The notes: generated from the sequence alone by a model not told the origin. DNA of 64,000 bases from an uncultured Faecalicatena sp. (GCA_948468385.1 CAOKHZ010000008.1:40265-104264), one strand, 5' to 3'. Shown: positions 7,085 to 46,264, counted from the stretch's first letter. Numbers and translations: made by a program.

Positions 7085-8893
7085 ATGCAGTACTTATGTA
7101 ATCCAGTAAACATTGATTATCATTACCAGTTTAACAAAGTGCAGATGCCGGACATGCCGGGAGACGCGCCGCTGCAGGTGGCGCGGGAGGCGGCCGACCC
7201 GTCCATGATTCAGTTTAAGGGAAGGTATTATATCTTCGCGTCCATGAATTTAAGCGTATGGGTGTCGGATGACATGGCAAATTGGAAGAGTTATCGCCTG
7301 CCGGACAATCTGCCGCTTTACGACTATGCGCCGGACGTGCGTGTGATTGGCGACTATGTGTATTTCAGCGCATCCAAGAGAGAGGAAGTTTGCGACTATT
7401 ACCGTACGAAGGACGTGATTAACGGACCTTATGAGCGTATCGAGGGAACGTTTGACTTCTGGGATCCGAACTTGTTCGTGGATGACGATGGCAGGATTTA
7501 TTTTTATTGGGGCTGTGCGAATGTGACTCCGGTGTGGGGCGTGGAGCTTGACCCGGAGACGATGAAGCCTTTGACCGAGCGCAAGGAACTTATCTGGGGA
7601 GATGCCTGGACAAAGGGGTATGAACGATGCGGAGAAGACCATTGTCAGCCGCCGTATACAAAAGAAGAGGCGGAAATGCGCTATCAGGGCTTCTTGCAGA
7701 TGCGCGGCATGAAAGATTCTGAATTATCTGACAGTATGAGAATTATGCTTCGCGGCTACATGAGTGGAGATCCGTATATCGAGGGGGCATGGATGGACAA
7801 GTACCAGGGCAAATATTATTTGCAGTATGCCTGTCCGGGAGCGGAGTTTAACGTATATGCAGACGGCGTATATGTGGGTGATTCCCCGCTTGGACCATTT
7901 GAACTGGCGGAAAACAATCCGTTTTCTTATAAGCCGGGCGGTTTCCTGCCGGGTGCGGGACATGGTTCCACGATGTGGGACAAGCACGGAAACTTATGGC
8001 ACGCGTCAACGATGAGAATCGGCATCAATCACCAGTTTGAGCGCCGTGTCGGTATCTGGCCGGCAGGATTTGACGCGGATGGCGAGTTGTTCTGTAATCA
8101 GAGGTATGGGGACTGGCCGATGGCGATTGACCAGGCGAAGCAGGATCCGTGGAAAGACCCGGACTGGTATTTGCTGAGCTACAAAAAGGCGGTGAGTGCC
8201 TCCTCCGCAGAAGAAGGCAAAGGGCCGGAGCTGGCGGCGGACGAGAATGTCCGGACCTGGTGGCGCGCGGCGAGCGAAGAGCGCGGCCAGTGGATTTGCA
8301 TGGATCTGGGGGACGTGTGTGACGTGCGCGCCGTGCAAATAAATTTTGCGGACGACAAGATTGACATTCCGATTCCGGGCGAGGTTCGCGGAACGTCGCA
8401 GGCGCGATATATTGAGGAAGCGGATTTGATTACCCGCTGGATTTTGGAAGGCTCCGAGGACGGGGAAAACTATTTCGTACTGGAAGACAAGTCGGACGTG
8501 ATGACCTGTTTGCCGCACGACCTCGTGGTGAAAGAGGACGGCGTCAAGATACGTTTTGTCAAATTGACGATTTTGGAGATTCCGTATGACCAGAAACCAT
8601 GTATTTCCGGACTCCGTGTATTTGGAATCGGAAACGGGGAAGCACCGAAAGCACCAAAATTTACGGTAAATCGCACAACAGATATTGACATGGAAGTGAA
8701 AATTGAGGATAATGGAGCGGTAGGTTATAATATTCTCTGGGGACACACGCCAGAAAAGTTATATCACAGCTACATGGTTTTCGGCAAAGACGCGCAGACT
8801 ATTGGTGCATTGGTCAAAGGAAGGAATTATTATGTGAGGGTCGACGCATTTAATGAAGTGGGTATCGCGGAAGGCGAAGTAGTGGCACTGTAA
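7085..8893 (+). CDS. Glycoside hydrolase family 43 enzyme with C-terminal F5/8 type C (discoidin) and Fn3-like domains
   Basis: 602 aa. The GH43-type five-bladed-propeller N-terminus includes ADPSMIQFKGRYYIFAS and DPNLFVDDDGRIYFYWG. The discoidin-like block is ENVRTWWRAASEERGQWICMDLGDVCDVRAVQINF. There is no signal peptide, so it is probably intracellular. Confidence 0.8.
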   Translation: MQYLCNPVNIDYHYQFNKVQMPDMPGDAPLQVAREAADPSMIQFKGRYYIFASMNLSVWVSDDMANWKSYRLPDNLPLYDYAPDVRVIGDYVYFSASKREEVCDYYRTKDVINGPYERIEGTFDFWDPNLFVDDDGRIYFYWGCANVTPVWGVELDPETMKPLTERKELIWGDAWTKGYERCGEDHCQPPYTKEEAEMRYQGFLQMRGMKDSELSDSMRIMLRGYMSGDPYIEGAWMDKYQGKYYLQYACPGAEFNVYADGVYVGDSPLGPFELAENNPFSYKPGGFLPGAGHGSTMWDKHGNLWHASTMRIGINHQFERRVGIWPAGFDADGELFCNQRYGDWPMAIDQAKQDPWKDPDWYLLSYKKAVSASSAEEGKGPELAADENVRTWWRAASEERGQWICMDLGDVCDVRAVQINFADDKIDIPIPGEVRGTSQARYIEEADLITRWILEGSEDGENYFVLEDKSDVMTCLPHDLVVKEDGVKIRFVKLTILEIPYDQKPCISGLRVFGIGNGEAPKAPKFTVNRTTDIDMEVKIEDNGAVGYNILWGHTPEKLYHSYMVFGKDAQTIGALVKGRNYYVRVDAFNEVGIAEGEVVAL

Positions 8894-8911
8894 TGGAAGG
8901 AGAAAATCGTA

Positions 8912-10009
8912 ATGAATTTAAATTTAAGACCGAAGGAAGAATGTAAATTTGATGCCGTGTCATTGGGAGAAGTCATGCTCCGGCTTGACCCGGGCGAGGG
9001 AAGGATCCGTACGGCGAGGAGTTTTCGCGCGTGGGAAGGCGGCGGAGAGTACAACGTAATCCGCGGACTGCACAAGTGCTTCCGCATGAACACGGCCGTG
9101 ATTACCGCGTTCGCGCAAAACGAGGTCGGCCTTTTGATGGAAGACTTTATCGAGCAGGGCGGCGTGGACACGTCCCTCATCAAGTGGATGAAGACGGACG
9201 GCATCGGACGCATTTGCCGTAACGGCTTGAATTTTACGGAGAGAGGATATGGCATCCGCGGGGCGGTTGGCTGCTCCGACCGTGCCAACACGGCGATTTC
9301 CAAGGCGACGCCGGAAGATTTTGATTTTGAATATATTTTTGGCGAATTGGGTGTGCGTTGGCTGCATACAGGCGGCATTTACGCGGCGTTGTCCGAGCAG
9401 TCTTGCGAGACCGTTCTGGCGGCGATTAAGACGGCGAAGAAGCATGGCACCATCGTGTCTTATGATTTGAATTACCGTCCTTCCATGTGGAGCGCGATTG
9501 GCGGCCAGGCAAAGGCGCAGGAAGTCAACAAGGAAATCGCGCAGTATGTGGACGTCATGATTGGAAATGAAGAGGACTTCACGGCCTGCCTTGGTTTCGC
9601 CATCGAGGGCAATGACGAGAACTTGAAGACGCTGAACCTGGACGGATATAAGAAGATGATTAACGAGGCGGCCAGGACGTACCCGAACTTCAAGGCCGTG
9701 GCAACGACGCTTCGCGAGGTGAAGACCGCGACGGTCAATGACTGGAGCGCGATTTGCTGGGCGGACGGCGAGATTTACAAGGCCAAAGATTACAAGGGTC
9801 TGGAAATCATGGATCGCGTGGGCGGCGGGGATTCTTTCGCTTCCGGCTTGATTTATGGCCTGATGACGACGGAAAATGCCGAACTGGCGGTCAATTATGG
9901 CGCGGCGCACGGCGCGTTGGCCATGACCACGCCGGGCGACACGACCATGGCCAGCAAGAAAGAGGTAGAGGCCATTATGGGCGGCGCGGGCGCGCGTGTA
10001 CAGAGATAA
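8912..10009 (+). CDS. PfkB-family sugar kinase (2-dehydro-3-deoxygluconokinase-like)
   Basis: 365 aa, with the PfkB C-terminal signature DRVGGGDSFASGLIYGL. It starts 19 bp after the GH43 stop and has its own GGAGA RBS. Confidence 0.8.
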   Translation: MNLNLRPKEECKFDAVSLGEVMLRLDPGEGRIRTARSFRAWEGGGEYNVIRGLHKCFRMNTAVITAFAQNEVGLLMEDFIEQGGVDTSLIKWMKTDGIGRICRNGLNFTERGYGIRGAVGCSDRANTAISKATPEDFDFEYIFGELGVRWLHTGGIYAALSEQSCETVLAAIKTAKKHGTIVSYDLNYRPSMWSAIGGQAKAQEVNKEIAQYVDVMIGNEEDFTACLGFAIEGNDENLKTLNLDGYKKMINEAARTYPNFKAVATTLREVKTATVNDWSAICWADGEIYKAKDYKGLEIMDRVGGGDSFASGLIYGLMTTENAELAVNYGAAHGALAMTTPGDTTMASKKEVEAIMGGAGARVQR

Positions 10010-10066
10010 GAACAAAGAATATTCAACGTGTATAGACGGCATTGCCGGCCACGGGATTATGAGCAA

Positions 10067-10102
10067 GGAGTCTTCCAATGTATTGGAGGACTCTTTGGTT
10101 CT
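10067..10102 (+). terminator. Rho-independent terminator after the GH43-kinase pair
   Basis: GGAGTCTTCCAAT / ATTGGAGGACTCT stem (12-13 bp including one G-U), followed by TTTGGTTCT. Confidence 0.6.
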
Positions 10103-10204
10103 ACGTCTTATGGTAGGTAGAGGCGGACGCGATGATGCCTACGAATTGCTCCGCGCTTTGGGACTCTGGTATCATCATTATGTTTTAGGGAGAGGGTTGC
10201 ATTT

Positions 10205-10996
10205 ATGGAACGGAAATTAACGGGGACACAGTTAAAGTGGCTGGCAATCATCATGATGGCGATTGACCATGTGGGAGCCGTGATCGTGGGGGGCTTTGTC
10301 TTTTTTCAGGGGATGGTCATAAATCCAAATCTTGAACACGTATATTGGCTGATGCGAAATATCGGCCGCCTGGCATTCCCGATTTTTTGCTTTTTGCTGG
10401 TGGAGGGCTTCTTTTATACCAGAAGCCGCAAAAATTACATGATAAGGCTGTTTCTGTTTGCATTGATTTCCGAATTCCCGTTTGACCTGGCGTTTGGCGA
10501 TTCCTACATCGACATGGAATACCAAAACGTATTTTTTGTGCTGTTTATCGGATTTGCCGTCATCTGGATTATGGAAAATCTGAAAGGAAGTCCGGTGCGG
10601 CAGACGCTTGTGATGTTAGCGGGCTGTGTCTTGTCCGAGATCATCATGTGCGACTATGGCCTGATCGGGGTAGTGCTTATCGTGATTTTTTACGCGTTCC
10701 GGCAGGATAAGACAAAAAGAGCCGTGGTGGGAGCACTCTGGCTGTATTTCGGCACGATGCTTCATTTTGCGGTGGAATTAGGGCCGTGGATTGTTTTGTA
10801 TGAAAATAAGTTGGAGGTGGCCGCCTATCTTTCGGATTCGGGTCTGGCGGAATTTCCGGGCGTCCTTGCATTTATTTTGGTTGGCATGTACAATGGGGAG
10901 AAGGGAAAACCATTTCCCAAGTATTTCTTCTATGCTTTTTATCCGTTGCATTTGTTGCTTCTGGGCATGATAAGACAGCGGCTGTTCGGGTTTTAA
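10205..10996 (+). CDS. TraX family membrane protein
   Basis: 263 aa and polytopic. The N-terminal LKWLAIIMMAIDHVGAV is the TraX-family hallmark. Confidence 0.75.
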   Translation: MERKLTGTQLKWLAIIMMAIDHVGAVIVGGFVFFQGMVINPNLEHVYWLMRNIGRLAFPIFCFLLVEGFFYTRSRKNYMIRLFLFALISEFPFDLAFGDSYIDMEYQNVFFVLFIGFAVIWIMENLKGSPVRQTLVMLAGCVLSEIIMCDYGLIGVVLIVIFYAFRQDKTKRAVVGALWLYFGTMLHFAVELGPWIVLYENKLEVAAYLSDSGLAEFPGVLAFILVGMYNGEKGKPFPKYFFYAFYPLHLLLLGMIRQRLFGF

Positions 10997-11060
10997 GGCG
11001 CGGGACGTTTACAAAGAACGGGTTCGGCCGTGGATAAGTTTTCATGGGAGGAAAGGAAAG

Positions 11061-11999
11061 ATGACGTTTTGGATACCGTTGATGATTGCGCTTGTTTTAT
11101 GCGGCATATTTTTTACGTATCTATGGCAGCAGTTTGAGCGCAGGAGGGAACTGGGGCTACTGTCCGATGCGATAGAACGGATTTTGCGGGGCGAGGATCA
11201 AGAGGCGGAGATTGTGGTGAAAAAGACGCGGCGAATTCCTTACAAGGATACCTTCTTTTCTCGCATATGTCATAAACTGAACCGTTTGGAACAAAGGATG
11301 GATGGATGTTATGAGCAGATTGCGGCCGACCGTGATTCGATGAAGGAGTCGATTACGGAAATTGCCAATCAACTGCGTACGCCGCTTAACAATCTGGAGG
11401 TTTATCTGGACTTTTTGGAGGGCGGCCATTTGACGCAAGAAGAGCAGGCTCGTTATTTGGGGACGGTTCGCGCGTCCGAGCAGAAAATCCGGCTCCTTAC
11501 AGAGAACTTTCTCAAAATGTCGAGGCTGGAAAACCGCATGATCAGGGCGTCTCGGGAAGAGTGGGATTTGCTGGCGACGATGGAGGCGGCCGTGGAATTG
11601 CTCTCGCCCGAAATGAAGGAAAAACAAATCGTCCTTAAGACCAGTTTCCCGAAGAAGCTTCATTTTCCGCATGATGCGGATTTGCTAGGCGAGGCGGTGC
11701 GAGATGTGCTTGACAACGCGGTAAAGTATAGCAGTGCGGGAGGGAAAATCGAGCTTGGCGCAAGACAGAGCGAGATGTTTACACAAATCTGGGTGCGCGA
11801 TTATGGAATCGGAATTCAGGAGGGCGACGAGGCAAAGGTGTTCCGGCGTTTTTATCGGGCAGAAAATGCGAAGGAGCAGGAAGGCTTTGGCATCGGCTTG
11901 ACAATCGCGCGGGAAATCGTGCTGCAGCACGACGGGTTCATGCAGGTTGTTCGCCAGAAAGACGGAACCCGCGTGGAAATTTATATGGAAAATTCATAG
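11061..11999 (+). CDS. Orphan histidine-kinase-like protein (one TM, HisKA-like helix, intact HATPase_c) with the phospho-acceptor His replaced by Asn
   Basis: 312 aa. The H-box position reads ITEIANQLRTPLNNL, versus the canonical SHELRTPL. The N-box VLDNAVKYS, G1 VRDYGIGI and G2 GFGIGLTIA are all present. No response regulator is adjacent. Confidence 0.75.
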   Translation: MTFWIPLMIALVLCGIFFTYLWQQFERRRELGLLSDAIERILRGEDQEAEIVVKKTRRIPYKDTFFSRICHKLNRLEQRMDGCYEQIAADRDSMKESITEIANQLRTPLNNLEVYLDFLEGGHLTQEEQARYLGTVRASEQKIRLLTENFLKMSRLENRMIRASREEWDLLATMEAAVELLSPEMKEKQIVLKTSFPKKLHFPHDADLLGEAVRDVLDNAVKYSSAGGKIELGARQSEMFTQIWVRDYGIGIQEGDEAKVFRRFYRAENAKEQEGFGIGLTIAREIVLQHDGFMQVVRQKDGTRVEIYMENS

Positions 12000-12131
12000 C
12001 GTCCGTACACCGACGCTAAGCGCGTTCTCGTAAGTGGCAAAGCGGTCGGCTTGGACGTTTTGACGCTGGCCGCGAGAATTTGCGTGCATCCTCGCGGTCA
12101 ATCAGCGCGGTGATTGGCCGGGATGGACTGG

Positions 12132-12659
12132 TTACCTTTCCGGCCGTTCGCTGGAAACGTCCGGATGTAAAAAGGTATATTGGAGCGCTTTCACTTCGCT
12201 CGTGTCGACCATGGTAAGAATGACGTTCCCGCTTTCCAGATACCAAACGTCGTTTGGATTTGCCATGGCGGCGAACTTGTCAGAATTGAATTGATAGCCG
12301 CTCTCGCCTAGTACGTCCTCCGTCTCGCTGTGGATTTTGTCGTACATGGCTTTCAAGTCTTCGGAATCATTGCTCTCGTACAGCCATGACATGCATACGA
12401 GCATTTCCTTGTCGTCAAACATGTACTTGATGGTTCCGTCCAATTCGTCATATTCTTTGGGATAGGTGTACGTCGTGCCTCCGTATACGGAATCGTAGGA
12501 TTCCTTGCATTCGCCTTCAAGCGCGATGATGTCTTCCAAGGTGGAGTTCCAGGTAATCGTCGTGAAGGGGCATTTCATTTCCTTTTTCTGGCATCCGGCA
12601 ATGAACAAGGTGGAAAGTGCCAAAACTAGGAGAAAAGCAATCTTGCGTGTCTGCTTCAT
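12132..12659 (-). CDS. Lipoprotein of unknown function
   Basis: 175 aa. The signal peptide carries a lipobox (LSTLFIAGC), and a GGAGG RBS is present. Confidence 0.7.
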   Translation of the reverse strand: MKQTRKIAFLLVLALSTLFIAGCQKKEMKCPFTTITWNSTLEDIIALEGECKESYDSVYGGTTYTYPKEYDELDGTIKYMFDDKEMLVCMSWLYESNDSEDLKAMYDKIHSETEDVLGESGYQFNSDKFAAMANPNDVWYLESGNVILTMVDTSEVKALQYTFLHPDVSSERPER

Positions 12660-28082: not shown

Positions 28083-31000
28083 ATGAAAAAGGCCAGGAAA
28101 CCAATGACCGTGCCGAAAGCCGTGGTGACTTACGTCATTTGTGCGGTTCTGATCTGCGCGATGCTGATTGGCACATATTACGCGGACGTGTACCGTGACC
28201 TGATTACGGTGTTCATGAGCGGTTCGGGGACGGTCACGACGGACAAGTCCGAGGAGGTTTGCCGTACGATTGAGGAGGAGGGCATGGTTTTGCTCAAGAA
28301 TGAAGATGCCGCCCTGCCCCTTGCGTCGGGAGCGAAAATATCCTTGTTCGGTCAGGACAGCGTGGACTTCGTGTATGGCGGGGCGGGCTCCGGTTCCGTG
28401 GACACGACGCTTGCACCGAACTTGAAAGAGGCCATGGAGGCGGCCGGATTTACGGTCAATGAGACGTTGTGGGACTTCTATGAGACGGGGGCGGGAAAAA
28501 GTTACCGCAAGAGCGTGCCGGACGAGACCGGCGCGGGAGAGTTCGCCATCAACGAGGTTACGGCAGACGTTTATACGGACGCGGTGAAGGAGAGCTTTGC
28601 CGAGTATAATGACGCGGCGATCGTCTGCATCGGGCGAAGCGGCGGGGAGAGCGCGGACATTCCGACAGAACCGCTCGCGTCGGGGTACCAGTATCTGGAA
28701 TTGGATAACAATGAGATGGACATGCTTGCAATGGCATGTGAAAATTTCGACACGGTAGTCGTGCTTCTTAATGCCAACAATGCATTAGAGTTGGGATTTT
28801 TGGAGGACGAGGCGTATGAAAACGTGAAAGCCTGCATGTGGTGCGGAGGCGTTGGCCAGGTCGGAATCTACGCGATTGGTGACGCGCTGGCCGGGAATAT
28901 TAATTTCTCGGGGCATTTGGCGGACACGTATGCGTACGATTCGCTCAGTGCCCCGTCGAGCGCCAACATCGGTGATTTTGACATTTTGAACAGTGAAGTC
29001 ACGAATGGAACGAAATATGCGGTTTATGCGGAAAATATTTACGTGGGTTATCGTTACTATGAGACGCGCTACGAGGACGTGGTGTTAGACCAGGGGAACG
29101 CGGGAGATTTCGATTACGCTTCCGAGGTGCAATTCCCGTTTGGATTTGGTTTGTCCTATACGGAATTTGAGTGGTCGGATTACGAGGTCGAGGAGAAAGC
29201 GGATACGTTCGAGGTTTCCGTGAAGGTGACCAATACCGGCGACGTGGCGGGTAAGGACGTGGTGGAAATCTACATGCAATCGCCTTATACCGATTACGAT
29301 AAGGAAAACGGAGTGGAGAAGGCGGCCGTCGAGTTGGTCGGATTTGAAAAAACCGGGGAAATCAAGGCCGGGGATTCTGAGACGGTCAAGGTGTCCGTGC
29401 CGAAGGAGAGCATGAAGGCCTACGACGCGAACAAGGCCAAGACCTATATTTTGGACGAGGGTGATTACTATTTCGCGGCGGGCAAGGACGCGCATGACGC
29501 GCTCAATCACATCTTGGCGGCCAAAGGCTACACGACCAAGGACGGCATGGACGAAGAGGGCGATGAAAGCCTTGTGTACAAGACGACGGTCGATAAATTT
29601 GACGATGAAATTTATGCCAAGTCCAGCGAGACGGGCGAGAAAATAGAAAATCAACTGGATGACGTGGACATTCGTTATTATGACGGCGAGTTCACCTATT
29701 TGACGAGAAATGATTGGGAAGGGACATATCCGACTACCTATAAGGACGGCGGCATGAACGCTTCCACGTCAATGCTTCAGGAGCTTGAATGGGATCGTGG
29801 TGACGAGGTCGTCGCGGACGGATCCACGATGCCAAAATTCGAGGTGGAGACGGACAAAAAGGTGGCAGACGTTGCCGGATTGGATTATGCGGATTCGGCG
29901 TGGATGGAGCTGGTGGCGAGCCTGCCGGCAGACAAGGCGATGCAAATCGTGCGCCTTGGCGGTTACGCGACCGTGCAGGCCGACGCGATTGGGCTGCCGC
30001 CCACGCAGGACAAGGACGGCCCGTCCGGCATTTCCGGCACGCTTGTCGGAGGACAAAGCGCGATGGCATATCCGGTGGAGGCGGTGATGGCCTGCACATG
30101 GAATAAAGAATTGATGTACGAGCTGGGCGAAAGCCTTGGCGAGGACTCGGTTAACACCGGCGTGACCGGATGGTACGCGCCGGGCGTGAACATCCATCGT
30201 TCGCCGTATAGCGGCCGTAATTTCGAGTATTTCTCGGAGGACGGCTATCTGTCAGGACAGATGGCGGGCAACGAGGTGAAAGGTGCACGCGAAAAGGGCG
30301 TCATCACCTATATGAAACATTTTGCCTTAAACGACCAGGAGACGAACCGTTATGGCGGCGCGATATTTGCCGGCGAGCAGGCAATTCGAGAAATTTACCT
30401 GAAAGGTTTTGAATATACGGTGACGATCGGCAATACCAATGCGGCGATGGCGTCCATGAACCGTATCGGCGCGCGTTGGGTCGGCGCGCACAAGGGCCTG
30501 ATGACGAACATTCTGCGTGACGAGTGGGGCTTCGAGGGCATGGTCATTACCGACCAGGCTTCCGTTCCGGCGATGTTTTATCAGGACATCATATCCGGGT
30601 TGGACGCGGGGACGGATCTTTGGCTGAACACGAACAAGAATTACTGGAAGCTGAGCGAGTATGCGGAAAGTGACGGCACGGTGACGGACTGGACGAATAA
30701 TGCCACCGTCATGAACAACGTGCAGCGGGCGGCAAAGAACGTGATTTACGCGGTCGGCACGTCGAATGCGATGGACACGTTGTCAGAGGACGGCGCGGTG
30801 GAAAATAGCAAGGCTCCGTGGGAAGTCGCATTGATTATATTGCAAATTCTGGTGTACGGCGTTTGCCTGATTCTCATCGTTATTACGACGATCAGGCTAG
30901 TGAAATATTTGAAGTCAAGACCTAAGACTGAGAGCGCGGAAGGAGAGGATATCGTGAAAAAGAGTACGGTGGCAATTTTGGTAGTGGTCGCGGTAATAAT

Positions 31001-31538
31001 CGGGTTGGTGGCCGGCGGGGTCGGCATGAAGTTCCTGGGTTCGCCGGCAAAACCGGCGGACGGCGGTGCGGCCGCGGGTGAAGGTGGAAACGCGGCAACG
31101 GGCGGTGCGGCCATCGCCAACGTGTATGTCAATGGGGAAACCGTGGATAATGATTATGATGACAGAAATTACGTGGAGTATGAATTGACCTTGTTCACGG
31201 ATGGCACGTACCAGATGCGCATGACGGAAGCAACGAGCGGTTACGGCATGGTTCTTTCTCATACGACGGTCACGACGTTCGGCACGTTTGAAAAAGGCGA
31301 GTCTTCGGATGGGTACACGGCTTGTGAATTGTCGGAGGCCACCCGGATTATATACAACGGATTTTCCGACATGGGCGGATATAACCTTTCCCATGATTCG
31401 GATTCCTGCACGTTTCCGGTGGAGCTTCCGGGCGGCATCATGACGGAAAAGGAAGACTTCTGGGCACAGTTTGGCGCGGCGCGGACGGTGTATATTGATG
31501 ACGCGGCCACAAGCAAGATGGTATTCACGTTGGATTAA
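28083..31538 (+). CDS. Membrane-anchored glycoside hydrolase family 3 enzyme (beta-glucosidase/xylosidase-like) with permuted domain order and a C-terminal 2-TM plus extra-domain extension
   Basis: 1151 aa with an N-terminal TM. The GH3 C-terminal-type domain comes first (LLKNEDAALPL...ISLFG; FPFGFGLSYTEFEW), then an Fn3-like module (VKVTNTGDVAGKDVVEIYMQ). The GH3 catalytic domain follows (NIHRSPYSGRNFEYFSEDGYL...KHFALNDQETNR). After that come two TM helices and a ~170-aa tail. Confidence 0.85.
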   Translation: MKKARKPMTVPKAVVTYVICAVLICAMLIGTYYADVYRDLITVFMSGSGTVTTDKSEEVCRTIEEEGMVLLKNEDAALPLASGAKISLFGQDSVDFVYGGAGSGSVDTTLAPNLKEAMEAAGFTVNETLWDFYETGAGKSYRKSVPDETGAGEFAINEVTADVYTDAVKESFAEYNDAAIVCIGRSGGESADIPTEPLASGYQYLELDNNEMDMLAMACENFDTVVVLLNANNALELGFLEDEAYENVKACMWCGGVGQVGIYAIGDALAGNINFSGHLADTYAYDSLSAPSSANIGDFDILNSEVTNGTKYAVYAENIYVGYRYYETRYEDVVLDQGNAGDFDYASEVQFPFGFGLSYTEFEWSDYEVEEKADTFEVSVKVTNTGDVAGKDVVEIYMQSPYTDYDKENGVEKAAVELVGFEKTGEIKAGDSETVKVSVPKESMKAYDANKAKTYILDEGDYYFAAGKDAHDALNHILAAKGYTTKDGMDEEGDESLVYKTTVDKFDDEIYAKSSETGEKIENQLDDVDIRYYDGEFTYLTRNDWEGTYPTTYKDGGMNASTSMLQELEWDRGDEVVADGSTMPKFEVETDKKVADVAGLDYADSAWMELVASLPADKAMQIVRLGGYATVQADAIGLPPTQDKDGPSGISGTLVGGQSAMAYPVEAVMACTWNKELMYELGESLGEDSVNTGVTGWYAPGVNIHRSPYSGRNFEYFSEDGYLSGQMAGNEVKGAREKGVITYMKHFALNDQETNRYGGAIFAGEQAIREIYLKGFEYTVTIGNTNAAMASMNRIGARWVGAHKGLMTNILRDEWGFEGMVITDQASVPAMFYQDIISGLDAGTDLWLNTNKNYWKLSEYAESDGTVTDWTNNATVMNNVQRAAKNVIYAVGTSNAMDTLSEDGAVENSKAPWEVALIILQILVYGVCLILIVITTIRLVKYLKSRPKTESAEGEDIVKKSTVAILVVVAVIIGLVAGGVGMKFLGSPAKPADGGAAAGEGGNAATGGAAIANVYVNGETVDNDYDDRNYVEYELTLFTDGTYQMRMTEATSGYGMVLSHTTVTTFGTFEKGESSDGYTACELSEATRIIYNGFSDMGGYNLSHDSDSCTFPVELPGGIMTEKEDFWAQFGAARTVYIDDAATSKMVFTLD

Positions 31539-31617: not shown

Positions 31618-31640
31618 GGCGGGTGGCGACCCGCCTTTTC
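31618..31640 (+). terminator. Rho-independent terminator after the GH3 gene
   Basis: GGCGGGT-GGCG-ACCCGCC followed by TTTT. Confidence 0.8.
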
Positions 31641-31688: not shown

Positions 31689-31717
31689 TTGAAATTTTGA
31701 GCTTAAGATGCTATGAT
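31689..31717 (+). promoter_or_regulatory. Sigma-A-type promoter of the WYL-WYL-rtcB unit
   Basis: TTGAAA (31689-31694), 17 nt spacer, TATGAT (31712-31717). Confidence 0.6.
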
Positions 31718-31786
31718 TTTAACATATGGTTATACTGTTACAATTCACCAAGATGGATGGAAACGGGAGTGGCGAGGAGAGACACG

Positions 31787-33094
31787 ATGGCGTACAGTGA
31801 GTTGATTAAAAATTTTGAATCCATCCGTGACTATATGCGGGAGTTTTACGTGTACGGTTTTCGCCGCCGCGGCGAGGTTGGCGCGAAGAGCGCCCGCAGT
31901 TATGATAATGAGAAGCGGCGCATTGAGAGCTGGCTGGGCGATTACATGTCCTTTACGCGGTCGCCTTCCGGTCGGGCGAGGTTTTTGTCCATGGACGCTC
32001 GCAATGTCCGGCACAATCCGTTTTATCAGGCGTTTCGGGCGAAATCGTTTACGGACAATGACATGATTTTACACTTTTTTCTTTTGGACTTGCTTGGAGA
32101 AGAACACTGGCTTTCGTTTCGGGAAATCGCGGAGGGACTTCATGGGGAATATTTTGACAAATTAAAGAAGCCTTTCATACTGGATGAATCCACGATAAGG
32201 AATAAATTGAAAGAGTATGTGAAAATCGGTCTGTTGGAGCAAAAAAAGGAGGGGAAAAGCGTTTTATACCGAAAGGTAAAATGTGGCGTGGATCTGTCGT
32301 CGTGGATGGATGCCGTCGCTTTTTTCGCGGAGGAAAATCCGTTGGGGGTGGTCGGTTCTTTTATATTGGCGCGAAAGGGATTGCAGAATGCGACGTGTTT
32401 TCAATTTCGCCATCATTACATGTTATACGCGCTGGACAGCCAGGTGCTTTACGAATTGTTGGATGCCATGAAAGGCAAGTGCGCGGTGGAGATTGCCGTC
32501 GCGAGGCGCAGAAGGGAGGCATCACGCGGGTACGGCGTTTACCCGGTGAAGATTTTTATCAGCACGCAGACGGGGCGCGAATACGTGCTGGCTTATGAAT
32601 ATGGGCAGAGGAAGTTGTCATTTTTCCGGTTAGACCATATCAAGGGCGTGAAAAAGGGGCGACGAGAAGAAAAGTGGGAAACCTACGAGCGGCGTTTTGA
32701 AAAATTTCGAAAAAATCTGTGGGGAGTGTCCGCCGGGCAGGAGCGGCGGACGGAACATTTGGAAATGACGGTGGCCGTTTACGAGGGCGAGGAATATATC
32801 GTGCGGCGGCTTGAGAGGGAGAAGCGAAACGGCCGGGTGGAAAAATTGAGTGGGGACGCGTGTCAGAATTTGACAGACGTGCGTGGCGTGGCGGGATTAT
32901 ATCAGTACATGGCAGACGAGCGTGGCGGGGTGGAGTTATATCAGTATACGGCAGACGCGCGCGACGCGGTGGAAATGTTGCCGTGGATTCGCACGTTTAT
33001 TGGCAGAATCGTGAAACTGGAGTGCACGAACCCGGCCGTCGTCGCGACTTTTGAAAGTGACATGCGAAAATTGTATGACATGTATCATGTGTGA
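31787..33094 (+). CDS. WYL-domain-like transcriptional regulator A (wHTH N-terminus, degenerate WYL beta-barrel, C-terminal extension)
   Basis: The ORF track starts at 31664, but ATG at 31787 follows a GAGGAGAG RBS. The protein begins MAYSELIKNFESIRDYMREFYVYGF. The WYL-type segment is GVYPVKIFISTQTGREYVLAYEYGQRKLSFFRLDHIKGV. Confidence 0.65.
   Translation: MAYSELIKNFESIRDYMREFYVYGFRRRGEVGAKSARSYDNEKRRIESWLGDYMSFTRSPSGRARFLSMDARNVRHNPFYQAFRAKSFTDNDMILHFFLLDLLGEEHWLSFREIAEGLHGEYFDKLKKPFILDESTIRNKLKEYVKIGLLEQKKEGKSVLYRKVKCGVDLSSWMDAVAFFAEENPLGVVGSFILARKGLQNATCFQFRHHYMLYALDSQVLYELLDAMKGKCAVEIAVARRRREASRGYGVYPVKIFISTQTGREYVLAYEYGQRKLSFFRLDHIKGVKKGRREEKWETYERRFEKFRKNLWGVSAGQERRTEHLEMTVAVYEGEEYIVRRLEREKRNGRVEKLSGDACQNLTDVRGVAGLYQYMADERGGVELYQYTADARDAVEMLPWIRTFIGRIVKLECTNPAVVATFESDMRKLYDMYHV
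32882..32959 (+). repeat. Two tandem 39-bp copies inside WYL-A (RGVAGLYQYMADE / RGGVELYQYTADA)
   Basis: Units at 32882-32920 and 32921-32959, in frame, followed by a partial third unit (RDAVE). Confidence 0.8.
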
Positions 33095-33115
33095 GACGGG
33101 GCGAAGGAGTAGGCG

Positions 33116-34021
33116 ATGATTTTCAGCGAGATTTATGGTACATATTTTCAGGTGGTCGCGGAGATTTTGGAACTTGCGTCGCGGGAAGCGGTTTCGGAGA
33201 AAAAGATACGCGAAATCGTGGAGAAAAAGGCGTTTTCCGAGAGCGTCCTTTCCATACCGGCGGCGTTAAAGGACGGAAGGTGGCCGCTTTTGGACGAGGA
33301 TGGAAGAGCGTTGCTTAAAAACATTCCTTCCATGCCGATGACGATTTTGGAGAAACGATGGCTGAAAGCGTTGCTGTCAGACCCGCGGATTGCCTTGTTT
33401 GGGCCGTCCGTGGCAGGCCTGGAAGACGTGGAACCGTTGTTTACGTCAGACATGTTCGTGTACTTTGATCGTTATGCGGATGGCGATCCATATGATGATT
33501 GGCGATACGTGGAACATTTTCGCATGATCATGACCGCGCTTAAGGAGGGGCGGAAGCTGCGGGTACGGTTTCGCATGAGGAAGGGGAAGGAATGCCGGAT
33601 GATTTGCGTGCCGTGCAAATTGGAGTATTCCGCAAAAGATGACAAGTTCCGGCTTCTGGCCATCGCGGGAGGAGGTCGGGTGACGATTAACGTGGCGCGG
33701 ATTCTGGAGTGCCGTTTTCTGGCGGAGTGTGAAAGCGGGGCGACGTTACCGGCATGTGAAAAGCAAGAGGTCGAGTTGCTTTTGGTTGACGAGCGAAATG
33801 CCCTGGAACGTGCGATGCTACATTTTTCTCATTTTGAGAAAGTAACGGAACGGTTGGACGAAAGGCATTACCATTTCTTACTTCGCTATGAAAAGGAGGA
33901 CGAGACAGAAATGCTTGTTCGGATTTTGTCGTTCGGGCCGAGGCTTCGGGTGGTTGCGCCGGAGGAGTTCGTGGAGAGGATAAGGGAAAGGTTGGAAAGA
34001 CAGAAACGGTTACAAGAATAA
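33116..34021 (+). CDS. WYL-domain-like protein B (second regulator subunit candidate)
   Basis: 301 aa, 21 bp after gene A, with a GGAG RBS. The WYL-type segment is CRMICVPCKLEYSAKDDKFRLLAIAGGGRVTINVARILEC. Confidence 0.6.
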   Translation: MIFSEIYGTYFQVVAEILELASREAVSEKKIREIVEKKAFSESVLSIPAALKDGRWPLLDEDGRALLKNIPSMPMTILEKRWLKALLSDPRIALFGPSVAGLEDVEPLFTSDMFVYFDRYADGDPYDDWRYVEHFRMIMTALKEGRKLRVRFRMRKGKECRMICVPCKLEYSAKDDKFRLLAIAGGGRVTINVARILECRFLAECESGATLPACEKQEVELLLVDERNALERAMLHFSHFEKVTERLDERHYHFLLRYEKEDETEMLVRILSFGPRLRVVAPEEFVERIRERLERQKRLQE

Positions 34022-34046
34022 AATAGGTTCAAGGACAGAAACGGTT
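33999..34046 (+). repeat. Perfect 13-bp direct repeat GACAGAAACGGTT (two copies, 35 bp apart) spanning the WYL-B stop and the rtcB upstream region
   Basis: Copies at 33999-34011 and 34034-34046, with partial similarity continuing for ~14 more nt. This is either a small tandem duplication of the gene's 3' end or a pair of regulator sites. Confidence 0.8.
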
Positions 34047-34112
34047 GCAGACGAAATAATGCGTTGTCATTCGTGACGGCTTCGCGCACATGAGTTCGCA
34101 ACCTTTTTTCCA

Positions 34113-34121
34113 TGATAAAAT
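34113..34121 (+). promoter_or_regulatory. Possible extended -10 element (TGATAAAAT) for an rtcB-proximal promoter
   Basis: TG-n-TAAAAT lies 52 nt before the rtcB ATG. There is no good -35 element. Confidence 0.3.
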
Positions 34122-34172
34122 CTGGTAATCGTGTTACCATCTTTGTATCACGGAAGGAAAGAAGGGAAAATC

Positions 34173-35378
34173 ATGGAAATGATAGAAATCAAGGGAAAGG
34201 TAAATACGGCTCTTTGCTATGCGAAAGTCGTGGAGGACGAGGCCATCGAGCAAGTGCGCAGGATGTGTGATTATGAGTTTACGAAAGGGTGCAAGATTCG
34301 CATCATGCCGGACGTGCATTCGGGGAAGGGCTGTACGATTGGCACGACGATGACGGTGGGAGACAAGGTTGTGCCGAACATTGTCGGGGTGGACATTGGC
34401 TGCGGGATGTACACGGTTGATTTGGGACGAAAGGAATTGGATTTTGCGAAGCTGGACGAGGCGGCACATTTCGTACCTTCGGGGATGAACGTGTGGGAGG
34501 GGCGGAAAGAACGGTTTGACTTGATGGAGCTTCGTTGCTATCGGAGCCTGCGAGACACGAAGCGGTTGGAGAGAAGCCTTGGCACGCTCGGCGGGGGAAA
34601 TCACTTTATCGAAGTGGACAGGGCGGCAGACGGGCGAAATTACCTGGTGATTCATTCGGGCAGCCGCAACCTTGGCAAGCAGGTTGCCGAGATTTACCAA
34701 CGGCTCGCGGTTGATTTGAACAAGGGGAAGGAAACGTATTTTCAGGAGCGGGACGAGATTATACGCACATATAAGGAGGCGGGGCGCAGGAAGGAAATTC
34801 AGGCGGCGTTGAATAATATCGCGTGGAAGGAACGTGAGGCGACGATGCCGGAGGATTTGTGTTATTTATACGGAACGTACTTGGAGGATTATCTGCATGA
34901 CGTGGAGATTTGTCAGCGGTTCGCGAGGCGCAATCGCGAGAAAATGGCTGAAGTCTTGTTGGAGCGGGTGGGGCTTGAAGGGGGCGAGGCATTTCACACG
35001 ATTCATAATTACATTGACACCGGGGAAATGATTTTGCGCAAGGGGGCGATTGCCGCGCATAAGGGCGAGAAAGTGCTGATTCCGATTAACATGCGGGACG
35101 GGAGCGTCCTGGCCGTCGGCCGGGGAAACGCGGAGTGGAACTATTCGGCGCCGCACGGGGCGGGACGTCTAATGTCGAGGACGGGAGCTAAGCAGCGGCT
35201 TTCCATGGAGGAGTACGAAAAGGCGATGGAGGGGATTTACACCACGTCCGTCAACGAGGCGACCCTCGACGAGGCACCGATGGCGTATAAGGCGTTGGAG
35301 GACATTATTGACGTGATACGCGAGTCGGTGGACGTGCTTGAGGTCATGAAGCCGGTGTATAATTTCAAGGCTTCGTGA
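34173..35378 (+). CDS. rtcB: RNA-splicing ligase RtcB (3'-phosphate/2',3'-cyclic phosphate to 5'-OH RNA ligase)
   Basis: MEMIEIKGKVNTA... with the RtcB motifs IMPDVHSGKGCTIG, GVDIGCGMY, LGGGNHFIEV, IHSGSRNLG, HNYI and SAPHGAGR. The ORF track start at 34131 is less likely than ATG at 34173, which follows GAAGGGAAA. Confidence 0.9.
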   Translation: MEMIEIKGKVNTALCYAKVVEDEAIEQVRRMCDYEFTKGCKIRIMPDVHSGKGCTIGTTMTVGDKVVPNIVGVDIGCGMYTVDLGRKELDFAKLDEAAHFVPSGMNVWEGRKERFDLMELRCYRSLRDTKRLERSLGTLGGGNHFIEVDRAADGRNYLVIHSGSRNLGKQVAEIYQRLAVDLNKGKETYFQERDEIIRTYKEAGRRKEIQAALNNIAWKEREATMPEDLCYLYGTYLEDYLHDVEICQRFARRNREKMAEVLLERVGLEGGEAFHTIHNYIDTGEMILRKGAIAAHKGEKVLIPINMRDGSVLAVGRGNAEWNYSAPHGAGRLMSRTGAKQRLSMEEYEKAMEGIYTTSVNEATLDEAPMAYKALEDIIDVIRESVDVLEVMKPVYNFKAS

Positions 35379-35395
35379 AAGGCATTTGAAAAGTG

Positions 35396-35420
35396 GGCGG
35401 GGATGAAAGTCCCGCCTTTC
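35396..35420 (+). terminator. Rho-independent terminator after rtcB
   Basis: GGCGGG-loop-CCCGCC followed by TTTC. Confidence 0.6.
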
Positions 35421-45083: not shown

Positions 45084-46066
45084 TGAGGAGAAGAAAAGGA
45101 CGTAGGATGATTTCGCGCATGGCAATGTCGCTTGCTTCATGCACGGTGGCCGTGCTCGTACTTTCTTTGGCTTGTGTGACACCTGGCTTTGCAGCAGAAT
45201 CGCCGTTACGTGGCAGTGTGGACGGCGCGGTGCCGCTCGCGGAGGCGGCGCAGCCAATCGGGGCGGAGGAGCCGGCGACGCTAGAAAGCGTGGGCGAGCC
45301 GATACCGGATGGCACGGCAGATTCCCCGCTTCTTGAAAACACGTCGGGGCGCGCCTGCGTGATAGATCAGGCGGAACTTCTCGACGCGGAGGAAAAGGCG
45401 AGGTTGGATGAAGCGTGCAGGAAGATTTATGATACATACGGCGTGCTCGTCGCGGTCGTGACGGTCAATGACTTTGGCGGCGGGGATATTATGGACTGGC
45501 AAATACGGGTATTTAAGGAAGACCCGTTCGAGATGAGGGCGCAGGACGGTGTCATGTTGGCGGTCAGCACGTCAGAACGCGATTGGGGGATTCAGACGTT
45601 TGGCGGCGCGCAGAGGGCGTTTAACACCTATGGGCGGGAACGGATTGGCGGAATCGTCGTGGAGAGTCTTTCGGACGAGGATTACTATGGCGCGTTTGAC
45701 GATTTCGTAAAATTGAGTGAGCGATTTCTCAAGGAGGCGGAGAAGGGAAAGCCATATTCGTCGGAGCATCCGTATCGGAAAAGCGTGCCAATCTGGATTA
45801 TCGTGGCGATTTCCTTCGTGGCATCCCTGGTGGTGTCGTTAGGAATAGTAAGCAGTTGGAAAAAGAGCATGAACACGCAGGTGCGGCGAAGCGGGGCTGA
45901 GGAATATTTAAAACCGGGCAGCTTCCACTTGACGAGGTCGTCGGATGTTTTCTTGTACCATACGGTGAGCCGTACTCCGAAGCCGAAGTCGAATAGCGGC
46001 AGCGGCAATGGCAATGGCGGGTCAAGCATGCACTCGACGAGCTCGGGAACAAGTGGAAAATTTTGA
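45083..46066 (+). CDS. Secreted/membrane-anchored TPM (TLP18.3/Psb32/MOLO-1) domain protein (YdjH-like)
   Basis: The start overlaps the upstream stop (TGATG). The protein has a signal peptide, a TPM block (VIDQAELLDAEEKARLDEACRKIYDTYGVLVAVVTV), a TM helix and a Gly/Ser-rich tail. Confidence 0.75.
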   Translation: MRRRKGRRMISRMAMSLASCTVAVLVLSLACVTPGFAAESPLRGSVDGAVPLAEAAQPIGAEEPATLESVGEPIPDGTADSPLLENTSGRACVIDQAELLDAEEKARLDEACRKIYDTYGVLVAVVTVNDFGGGDIMDWQIRVFKEDPFEMRAQDGVMLAVSTSERDWGIQTFGGAQRAFNTYGRERIGGIVVESLSDEDYYGAFDDFVKLSERFLKEAEKGKPYSSEHPYRKSVPIWIIVAISFVASLVVSLGIVSSWKKSMNTQVRRSGAEEYLKPGSFHLTRSSDVFLYHTVSRTPKPKSNSGSGNGNGGSSMHSTSSGTSGKF

Positions 46067-46071
46067 TTATA

Positions 46072-46132
46072 GTGCCAAAGGTCTATCTCCACGATATGCT
46101 TGCATATCGGTGGAGAATAGACCTTATGGCAC
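46072..46132 (+). other. 61-nt near-perfect hairpin (about 27 bp, three single-nt bulges, CUUG loop) 6 nt after the TPM gene stop
   Basis: I paired it base by base: GTGCCAAAGGTCTATCTCCACGATATG-CTTG-CATATCGGTGGAGAATAGACCTTATGGCAC. No U-tract follows. Confidence 0.85.
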
Positions 46133-46133
46133 G

Positions 46134-46220
46134 CCCCACAATGAGGATGAAGCGGAGCGAAGCTCTGTGAGAATCCGAATTGTGGGGAGGATTGCGGGAG
46201 CACGTAATGCGGAGCAATCC
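46134..46220 (+). other. Two further adjacent stem-loops (CCCCACAAT...ATTGTGGGG and GGATTGC...GCAATCC)
   Basis: The 9-bp stem spans 46134-46142 / 46179-46187. The 7-bp stem spans 46189-46195 / 46214-46220. Confidence 0.7.
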
Positions 46221-46264
46221 GTAATCAAAAAATAATCATGTAAGAAAGGAAATGGTAAAAAAAC

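Follow-up and report, generated by a model that had tools for sequence, protein, structure and literature searches.

A pair of adjacent regulatory genes, here called A and B, lies directly upstream of rtcB in DNA from an uncultured Faecalicatena sp. The stretch analysed, referred to as the window, is 64 kb long, and its gene neighbourhood was compared with that of 80 species-representative genome loci retrieved with A. Between B and rtcB we found a promoter that appears, from comparative sequence analysis, to be conserved with a rigid geometry, to serve RNA-repair genes exclusively and to be co-inherited with the paired A–B genes. We put the odds at about even (roughly 50%) that A and B form a heteromeric factor of the PafBC type, which binds the conserved promoter block and acts as a ligand-gated activator of rtcB. 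A preliminary description of the locus had proposed that a pair of WYL regulators replaces RtcR here. That proposal is supported in part, by the PafBC/DriD fold of A and B, their obligate pairing, the tie between promoter and RNA-repair cargo, and the lack of RtcR and RtcA in the window, whereas the DNA elements assigned to it, a 13-bp repeat as operator and a −10 element, were not upheld.

A rigidly spaced promoter between B and rtcB

The DNA past B was aligned in close and distant relatives, giving the consensus (R)AG-TTCGCAAC-TTTTTTT-CC-RTGAT, then ~18 non-conserved nt, then TG-n-TAtnaT. The predicted positions are about −52 to −45 for TTCGCAAC, −44 to −38 for the T-tract and −35 to −30 for the −35 hexamer RTGATT, which matches the −35 consensus at three of six positions. 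Although the spacer sequence is not conserved, its length is: the −10 begins exactly 40 nt past the first T of TTCGCAAC in 54 of 68 unique promoters. The window has a single exact copy of the 14-mer TTCGCAACYTTTTT (34095–34108, between B and rtcB), and 59 of the 80 loci likewise have exactly one; with up to one mismatch, the 14-mer is present in 70.

Forty loci share the arrangement of the window, with the block past B on the same strand; in 29 it lies upstream of A in divergent orientation, and one further locus proved tandem on inspection. The block always points away from A–B. Tandem loci have no TTCGCAAC-type site upstream of A, and autoregulation through the same motif was therefore rejected for them.

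The preliminary description had taken TGATAAAAT (34113–34121) as an extended −10. This segment aligns with the −35 region (RTGAT) of relatives, and the conserved −10 is the TG-extended element further downstream (Table 1), so TGATAAAAT was rejected for that role. Within this subgroup of Lachnospiraceae it could still function as a secondary −10, paired with TTCGCA as a −35 at the poor spacing of 15 nt.

RNA-repair genes follow the promoter across genomes and metagenomes

For a census of cargo, we used motif-bearing loci (≤1 mismatch) with at least 2.5 kb of downstream sequence (n = 66). RNA-repair genes are present on the motif strand in all 66. In 41 loci the cargo is a DUF2828/DUF7788 (vWA) protein with RtcB, with or without RlaP and a CCA-type nucleotidyltransferase, and 11 loci, many at a contig end, have DUF2828 only or DUF2828 with RlaP. 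RtcB alone, the arrangement of the window, accounts for six loci and RtcB–RlaP for two. The remainder carry a Band-7 protein with or without RtcB and RlaP (four loci) or Hen1–Pnkp (two loci).

An independent sample was drawn by scanning metagenomes with the 22-mer motif, and 80 of the resulting loci were examined. A/B genes lie on the upstream side in 70 of them (55 tandem, 15 divergent), and eight of the ten that lack A/B have less than 1.5 kb of upstream sequence. Where at least 2.5 kb was available downstream, the same cargo types were found in 38 of 41 loci. On an Enterococcus raffinosus megaplasmid, with an A protein 31% identical to that of the window, A–B is divergent from a Hen1–Pnkp–nucleotidyltransferase operon. 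The promoter there carries the variant CTCGCACCCTTTTTT, and its TAAGAT −10 again lies exactly 40 nt downstream. Since the promoter is shared by RtcB and the unrelated Hen1–Pnkp system, the module is portable across ligase types.

Several loci show further arrangements. Hen1–Pnkp is driven by the A–B-associated promoter, sometimes together with DUF2828 and RlaP, in L011 (7885–11894), L013, L081 (E. raffinosus NZ_CP081847.1, 2088–5880), L132 and L159. In seven loci (L008, L019, L023, L041, L043, L046 and L051, at about 8195–12310) the genes directly past B are a conserved set comprising a MoxR-like AAA ATPase, a DUF2201 metallopeptidase-VWA protein and a TPR protein with a NucS-like endonuclease domain, and the repair operon is divergent; this trio may represent additional cargo, or else a conflict system linked to the locus. 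L036 (1003–4061, minus strand) has TerB-N/TerB-C and BrxC/BrxD-like ATPase genes past DUF2828 in place of RtcB, which hints at exchange with defence-type modules. In the metagenome locus L144 (2379–3630), the 22-mer is intact past B, and a small open reading frame (ORF) and unrelated genes (AAA_14/DUF4143 and a Na/Ca exchanger) stand where the −10 region and cargo would be, an apparent decay or rearrangement of the module.

A and B are inherited as one unit

B directly follows A in the same orientation in all 80 genome loci, usually with an overlap of ~11–14 nt in relatives. Natural A–B fusions, independent of one another, make up 11 of the best 150 family representatives. These proteins, of 685–855 aa, consist of a full A, a low-complexity linker of 20–50 aa and a full B whose sequence is 33–44% identical to that of the window. 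The fusions mirror the relationship between the separate PafB and PafC and the naturally fused PafBC (6SJ9). A and B share no detectable sequence similarity, and an origin as recent paralogues was rejected on that ground. Together, the constant adjacency and the fusions suggest that A and B act as an obligate pair, in agreement with the paired regulators and the synteny envisaged in the preliminary description.

The family is large, and human-gut Clostridia carry it in abundance. A word-indexed search returned at least 7,549 matches for A and at least 6,984 for B (clusters at 90% identity), and an exhaustive profile search yielded 625 clusters at 50% identity with E ≤ 1e-30.

Domain architecture of A and B

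Protein A is composed of a conserved N-terminal region of ~100 aa, a putative ArsR-like winged helix–turn–helix (wHTH), a WYL domain and a WCX-like C-terminus. The WYL domain (PF13280) scores 24.3 bits against a Pfam gathering cut-off of 21.8, and the PADLOC model for CRISPR-associated WYL proteins matches A at 1.8e-9. In profile comparison with the PDB, A matches the WYL domain of mycobacterial PafB/C (7p5x, E 9e-4), with weak ArsR/SmtB winged-helix matches over residues ~117–187 (E 0.2–0.8); some A homologues bear PF12840 or PF07848. The WCX (PF25583) character of A is fold-based, resting on an alpha/beta C-terminus and full-length Foldseek matches. The N-terminal ~100 aa are extremely conserved and have no family match in Pfam. 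At the position of the WYL arginine pair, R281 is invariant and the second residue varies, being His in the window.

Protein B comprises a wHTH-like N-terminus, seen at the level of fold, a degenerate WYL domain and a WCX domain. WCX passes its Pfam cut-off (31.2 bits against 23.9), whereas WYL stays below threshold (13.6 bits), yet the PADLOC WYL model matches at 4.3e-12. In B, FRL replaces WYL, and the motif EYSxKDDKFR is invariant. N192 is invariant and R195 near-invariant at the arginine pair. The peptides that the preliminary description had quoted as degenerate WYL segments both correspond to WYL strands. Its wHTH-like N-termini are hinted at by the weak ArsR/SmtB profile match in A and by the fold of B, though not by any Pfam match; for the N-terminal region of B, Pfam gave no sequence match.

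The AlphaFold2 model of B is good, with a predicted local distance difference test (pLDDT) score of 82.6. Foldseek matched it best to PafBC (9fnd_Y, 1.4e-9) and otherwise to the same set as A, for which the top matches are PafBC on RNA polymerase, DriD, CapW, BrxR and WYL1. B also superposes on full-length DriD with a template-modelling (TM) score of 0.45–0.49. In the profile search of B against the PDB, PafBC and PafC rank best, though weakly; single-sequence PDB searches found nothing. NCBIfam has no model for A or for B, and RefSeq names their relatives 'WYL domain-containing protein'. On the basis of these profiles and models, A and B are probably HTH-WYL-WCX proteins with the fold of PafBC and DriD and a predicted DNA-binding wHTH.

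Within A, a 39-nt segment is repeated three times in frame (Table 1). It is single-copy in most homologues and triplicated only in the closest relatives (P0001, partly P0002), and AlphaFold2 confidence is low across the repeat. A 618-aa A homologue, P0013, has its wHTH region triplicated in tandem ahead of the WYL domain; P0013 was considered as an A–B fusion and rejected, being an A with a triplicated wHTH.

RtcB is the sole cargo in this genome

The rtcB product matches Pfam RtcB (PF01139) at 2.4e-56 and shares 31% identity with E. coli RtcB in a full-length alignment. As the preliminary description had read from the window, the catalytic motifs are complete: MPDVH, GVDIGCG, GNHFIE, HSGSR, HNY and HGAGR all align with those of the E. 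coli and P. horikoshii enzymes, and the metal-binding Asp/Cys/His residues and the GMP-accepting His of HGAGR are retained. Judging by these motifs, rtcB should encode a catalytically intact 3′-phosphate/2′,3′-cyclic-phosphate RNA ligase. It is the only cargo of the conserved promoter in this genome. A tblastn search of the whole window with E. coli RtcA and RtcR found no match (E > 5), in line with the absence of both genes noted earlier, and DUF2828, RlaP, Band7, Hen1, Pnkp and the CCA-type enzyme were likewise unmatched in the window.

A terminator that shares DNA with the promoter block

In tandem relatives, the end of the B coding sequence (...TTGCGAACTC TGA) base-pairs with GAGTTCGCAAC and, with the T-run, constitutes a strong intrinsic terminator (z −3 to −6). 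Divergent loci have no hairpin at the element yet conserve it equally well, so that it is a DNA element secondarily recruited as the 3′ half of a terminator. By the same observation, the idea that TTCGCAAC-T7 is merely the terminator of B was rejected.

The terminator arm that lies within B is degraded in the window (CGGTTACAAG), and its role as 5′ arm has passed to a duplicate located 35 nt further on (ACGGTTGCAG, the second 13-bp repeat), which pairs within a longer, branched hairpin. The perfect 13-bp direct repeat GACAGAAACGGTT had been singled out in the preliminary description as a candidate regulator-binding site. The repeat itself is present; it is absent or degenerate in L001, L002, L033, L058 and L063 and kept only in the closest relative. 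As an operator it was rejected, since it is not conserved and is explained by duplication of the 3′ end of B. Its sequence suggests that this duplicated end now serves as the terminator 5′ arm.

Layout and surroundings of the locus

A, B and rtcB lie on one strand and are bracketed by two hairpins (Table 1). The gene sizes and gaps of the preliminary description, its promoter upstream of A and its two flanking terminators were all recovered; the upstream hairpin is stable and the downstream one weaker. Both have U-tracts below what the terminator scan requires. By its position, the upstream hairpin would shield A–B from transcription coming from upstream. The trio had also been described as insulated. 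Hairpins at both ends agree with that view, but the locus appears, from its sequence signals, to comprise two transcription units, A–B and then rtcB, rather than a single operon. Conservation of the promoter-like site before A was not seen in relatives.

Table 1. Features of the A–B–rtcB locus and its surroundings, in window coordinates.
Feature	Position	Strand	Remarks
Glyco_hydro_3 ORF	28083–31538		upstream neighbour
Terminator-like hairpin	31618–31640 (stem 31618–31635)	+	GGCGGGU-GGCG-ACCCGCC + UUUU; end of upstream GH3 glycosidase gene; −20.5 kcal/mol, z −3.2
Promoter-like site of A–B unit	31689–31717	+	sigma-70 type, TTGAAA-17-TATGAT, TG-extended; 10/12 match
Gene A	31787–33094	+	435 aa
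In-frame tandem repeat in A	32863–32979	+	39 nt x3; 13-aa units YQYxADxRD..; triplicated WCX strand segment
Gene B	33116–34021	+	301 aa; starts 21 nt past A
13-bp direct repeat GACAGAAACGGTT	33999–34011; 34034–34046	+	within end of B; intergenic; perfect, 19 nt at 89% when extended
Branched terminator-like hairpin past B	34033–34111	+	−25 kcal/mol, z −1.9; 3′ arm + U-tract = TTCGCAAC-T-run element
Conserved upstream promoter block	34092–34116	+	GAG-TTCGCAAC-C-TTTTTT-CC-ATGAT; about −55 to −30; candidate A–B binding site; overlaps weak −35 (ATGATA)
Conserved extended −10 of rtcB promoter	34132–34140	+	TGtTACCAT; predicted start near 34147
rtcB	34173 (ATG)–35378	+	401 aa; starts 151 nt past B
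Weak terminator-like hairpin past rtcB	35395–35420 (stem 35395–35417 + UUU)	+	−14 kcal/mol, z −1.6
Clostridiales-1 RNA (Rfam RF01699)	46064–46227	+	133.7 bits

The flanking genes encode a GH3 glycosidase on one side and a DUF6020 membrane protein on the other, and the locus is therefore not part of a defence island. A phage origin was rejected, since a search of 50,697 phage records gave zero matches. Rfam returned two sub-threshold chance matches for the region of the locus and nothing else. Elsewhere in the window lies a Clostridiales-1 RNA (Table 1), a small RNA that, as far as seen, is unconnected to A–B–rtcB.

Structured RNAs in the leaders of relatives

In relatives, and not in the window, one to seven structured RNA modules of 50–120 nt lie between the promoter and DUF2828. 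A module is closed by a stem with AAAG-N5 as its 5′ strand and N5′-CTTG as its 3′ strand, and carries a conserved, unpaired ACAGCAA. We counted 116 modules in 43 of 46 leaders, against 1.8 expected in shuffled sequences, with ~37 compensatory stem variants; examples among loci L003–L080 are L035 (5664–5860, minus strand), L017 (5520–5825, minus strand) and L054 (8200–9300). Many of them, a subset of ~100 nt, enclose a tRNA-like body with a D-arm, a variable anticodon-like stem and a GGTTCGAATCC T-arm. RNAalifold predicted 22 pairs from 14 tRNA-like modules, 15 of them with compensatory changes, and the leaders gave no more than weak tRNA matches in Rfam. The modules seem to form an uncatalogued family akin to Y RNA/YrlA, paired with DUF2828 rather than with Ro60; the combination recalls the layout of the YrlA Y RNAs beside rsr-rtcBA. 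In L065 (8544–9138, plus strand; promoter motif at 8459), one of 25 loci scanned, the first element past the promoter is a full-length ROOL RNA (287 bits), followed by two tRNA-like RNAs, DUF2828 and RtcB. A functional link between ROOL RNA and RNA repair is possible.

A model for control of rtcB and its alternatives

The model that we favour starts from a single heteromeric HTH-WYL-WCX transcription factor of the PafBC type, formed by A and B. In the rtcB promoter, this factor would bind GAG-TTCGCAAC-T7-CC-RTGAT, between about −55 and −30. The WYL/WCX module would bind a nucleic-acid damage signal, the likeliest candidates being RNA fragments (for example cleaved tRNA ending in 2′,3′-cyclic phosphate) or single-stranded DNA (ssDNA), whereupon the promoter would be switched on and RtcB made. 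Activation would be achieved by placing RNA polymerase at the sub-optimal −35, as PafBC and DriD do. A–B would be transcribed from its own promoter and separated from rtcB by the terminator whose 3′ arm is the binding-site DNA.

Activation is favoured because the −35 is weak, the spacing is rigid although the spacer sequence is not conserved, and the site is asymmetric, lying upstream of or over the −35. It is also favoured because PafBC and DriD, the best structural relatives, act at a constant distance from a good −10 in promoters whose −35 is poor (PMC8635444, PMC13004042), and because no autoregulatory copy stands ahead of A in tandem loci. Several observations weigh against this model. 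Each subunit retains only half of the canonical WYL arginine pair (FRLxRI), with R281 and a variable residue in A and N192 with R195 in B, and the model of A is of low confidence (pLDDT 61). A–B lacks a nearby motif in ~10 of the 80 genome loci, and two motif-first loci have ample upstream DNA yet no A–B. The block includes a −35-like hexamer, and RNA polymerase alone could maintain the fixed spacing.

The same factor and site might also work with the opposite sign. A–B would then be a repressor of the CapW/BrxR type that occludes the UP/−35 region of an active extended −10 promoter and leaves on ligand binding, a reading that we regard as possible and a good deal less secure than even odds. 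The conserved TG-extended −10 may give substantial activator-independent activity and, together with the T-rich, UP-like tract, suggests a strong basal promoter; the block overlaps the −35 position. CapW and BrxR, which are also among the structural matches, act locally, each beside a single cargo operon, and are described as repressors (PMC11888443). Repression is harder to reconcile with a rigidly spaced, asymmetric site placed upstream of or over the −35 rather than over the −10/+1, with tandem loci that have no site ahead of A and hence no autorepression, and with best structural matches, PafBC and DriD, that are activators. We consider it improbable that A–B instead binds RNA and assists the repair machinery, in the manner of WYL1 with Cas13d, with the block bound by another factor or serving as a mere UP element or terminator. 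WYL1 (6oaw) is indeed among the structural matches, the extremely conserved N-terminal 100 aa of A have no family match, and structured RNAs are numerous in the cargo of relatives. Yet both proteins are predicted to have wHTH-type N-termini, with an ArsR-type profile match in A and a DriD-like full-length superposition of B, and A–B is a separate, terminator-insulated unit that is often divergent from its cargo. The block, moreover, is conserved without the hairpin and across cargo types, including RNA-free cargo as in the window. Most improbable of all is an incidental adjacency, with A–B regulating other genes and rtcB expressed constitutively from an ordinary promoter. The housekeeping neighbours in the window (GH3 glycosidase and DUF6020) and the ~10 loci with A–B and no nearby cargo would fit such a picture, which is opposed by the RNA-repair cargo of every motif locus with enough sequence, across both orientations and three unrelated ligase systems, by the agreement of the motif-first sample and by the single occurrence of the 14-mer in the window, exactly between B and rtcB.

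With ligand-gated activation as the preferred reading, it is highly likely that A–B and its promoter do in Firmicutes what the RtcR switch does in enterobacteria. A broader proposal can be made only tentatively: A–B may be the first RNA-damage-sensing WYL factor, activating a portable RNA-repair promoter of PafBC/DriD-like geometry with interchangeable cargo (RtcB, Pnkp-Hen1, RlaP, CCA-type nucleotidyltransferase, Band-7, DUF2828 and Y-RNA/tRNA-like arrays) in gut Firmicutes and some Synergistetes and Spirochaetes. To our knowledge, RtcR is the only characterised RNA-damage sensor, and we know of no account of how damage is detected outside Proteobacteria for RtcB or Pnkp-Hen1 repair. The locus is a compact system, made up of two genes (or one natural fusion), a promoter of 50 bp whose 25-bp site is near-invariant and a single cargo gene; the window holds the minimal version, with regulators, promoter and RtcB only. 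If the model is correct, the PafBC heterodimer paradigm would extend beyond Actinobacteria and from DNA-damage to RNA-repair control, RtcR would have a non-homologous functional replacement, and there would be a handle on the roles of the RNA modules and DUF2828. The conserved promoter also offers a query with which to look for new RNA-repair components and their accompanying non-coding RNAs.

Our literature search found no description of the A–B pair, its fusions or its promoter, and Burroughs & Aravind 2016 may already mention WYL regulators beside RNA-repair genes. A later article states that some CARF and WYL factors regulate RNA-repair pathways, citing Burroughs & Aravind 2016 for WYL transcription factors (PMC9503650).

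Comparison with known regulatory systems

PafBC, the top structural match for both A and B, likewise consists of two adjacent HTH-WYL-WCX genes that act as one unit and are naturally fused in some hosts (fused in Arthrobacter; PDB 6SJ9, 7P5X, 9FND). Its promoters combine a good −10 and a poor −35 with an asymmetric, factor-specific element at a fixed distance, as here. Sequence similarity is marginal (E 9e-4) and confined to the WYL domain, and neither pafA nor proteasome genes were found, giving no case for PafB/PafC orthology. In contrast to PafBC, A bears an additional conserved N-terminal domain of ~100 aa. The PafBC element is tGTCgg at −26 (tGTCgg-N10-tAnnnT), whereas TTCGCAAC-T7 (about −52 to −38) and the −35 region make up the element here; it lies 40 nt upstream of the −10 start and does not match the PafBC element. 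PafBC governs a DNA-damage regulon of ~150 genes in Actinobacteria, and A–B would govern a single adjacent RNA-repair operon in Firmicutes. PafBC is activated by ssDNA and not by single-stranded RNA (ssRNA), and has a conserved WYL arginine pair, FRLxRI (PMC11804915), that is partly kept in A–B.

DriD, a WYL activator of Caulobacter (PDB 8TP8, 9PFV), matches the full-length fold of B. Its site, like the block described here, overlaps the −35 and keeps a constant spacing to the −10, and DriD is gated by a nucleic-acid ligand, ssDNA. Unlike the obligate A–B pair with its asymmetric site, DriD is a homodimer on a pseudo-palindrome and controls another regulon.

CapW, from the cyclic-oligonucleotide-based antiphage signalling system (CBASS), and BrxR, from the bacteriophage exclusion system (BREX), are local regulators beside the operon that they control and share the HTH-WYL-WCX fold of A–B. 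They differ from A–B in being homodimers on palindromic operators, with phage-defence cargo and a known repressor function. WYL1, the accessory protein of Cas13d, binds ssRNA. It is a WYL-domain protein and a weaker structural match to A and B (PDB 6OAW); unlike A–B, it modulates an effector protein directly, has no paired partner and is not known as a transcription factor.

In biological role, the closest parallel is the enterobacterial RtcR-rtcBA or rsr-yrlBA-rtcBA system, in which a dedicated sensor-regulator stands beside the RtcB operon, as the putative A–B sensor does here. Relatives of the locus also hold tRNA-like or Y-RNA-like RNAs and a vWA protein upstream of rtcB, with DUF2828/DUF7788 taking the place of Ro60/Rsr. 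The regulators themselves differ. RtcR is a CARF-AAA+-HTH enhancer-binding protein for sigma54, whereas A–B is a WYL pair with a sigma70-type promoter, and neither component of a canonical Rtc system, the CARF-AAA+ sigma54 regulator RtcR or RtcA by rtcB, was matched in the window. The CARF domain of RtcR binds tRNA 5′ halves that end in a 2′,3′-cyclic phosphate, and RNAs of this kind have been proposed by the Aravind group to signal to WYL factors as well (PMC9503650). By analogy with these systems, A–B would combine an architecture like that of PafBC and DriD with a biological role like that of RtcR, as an orthologue of none of them.

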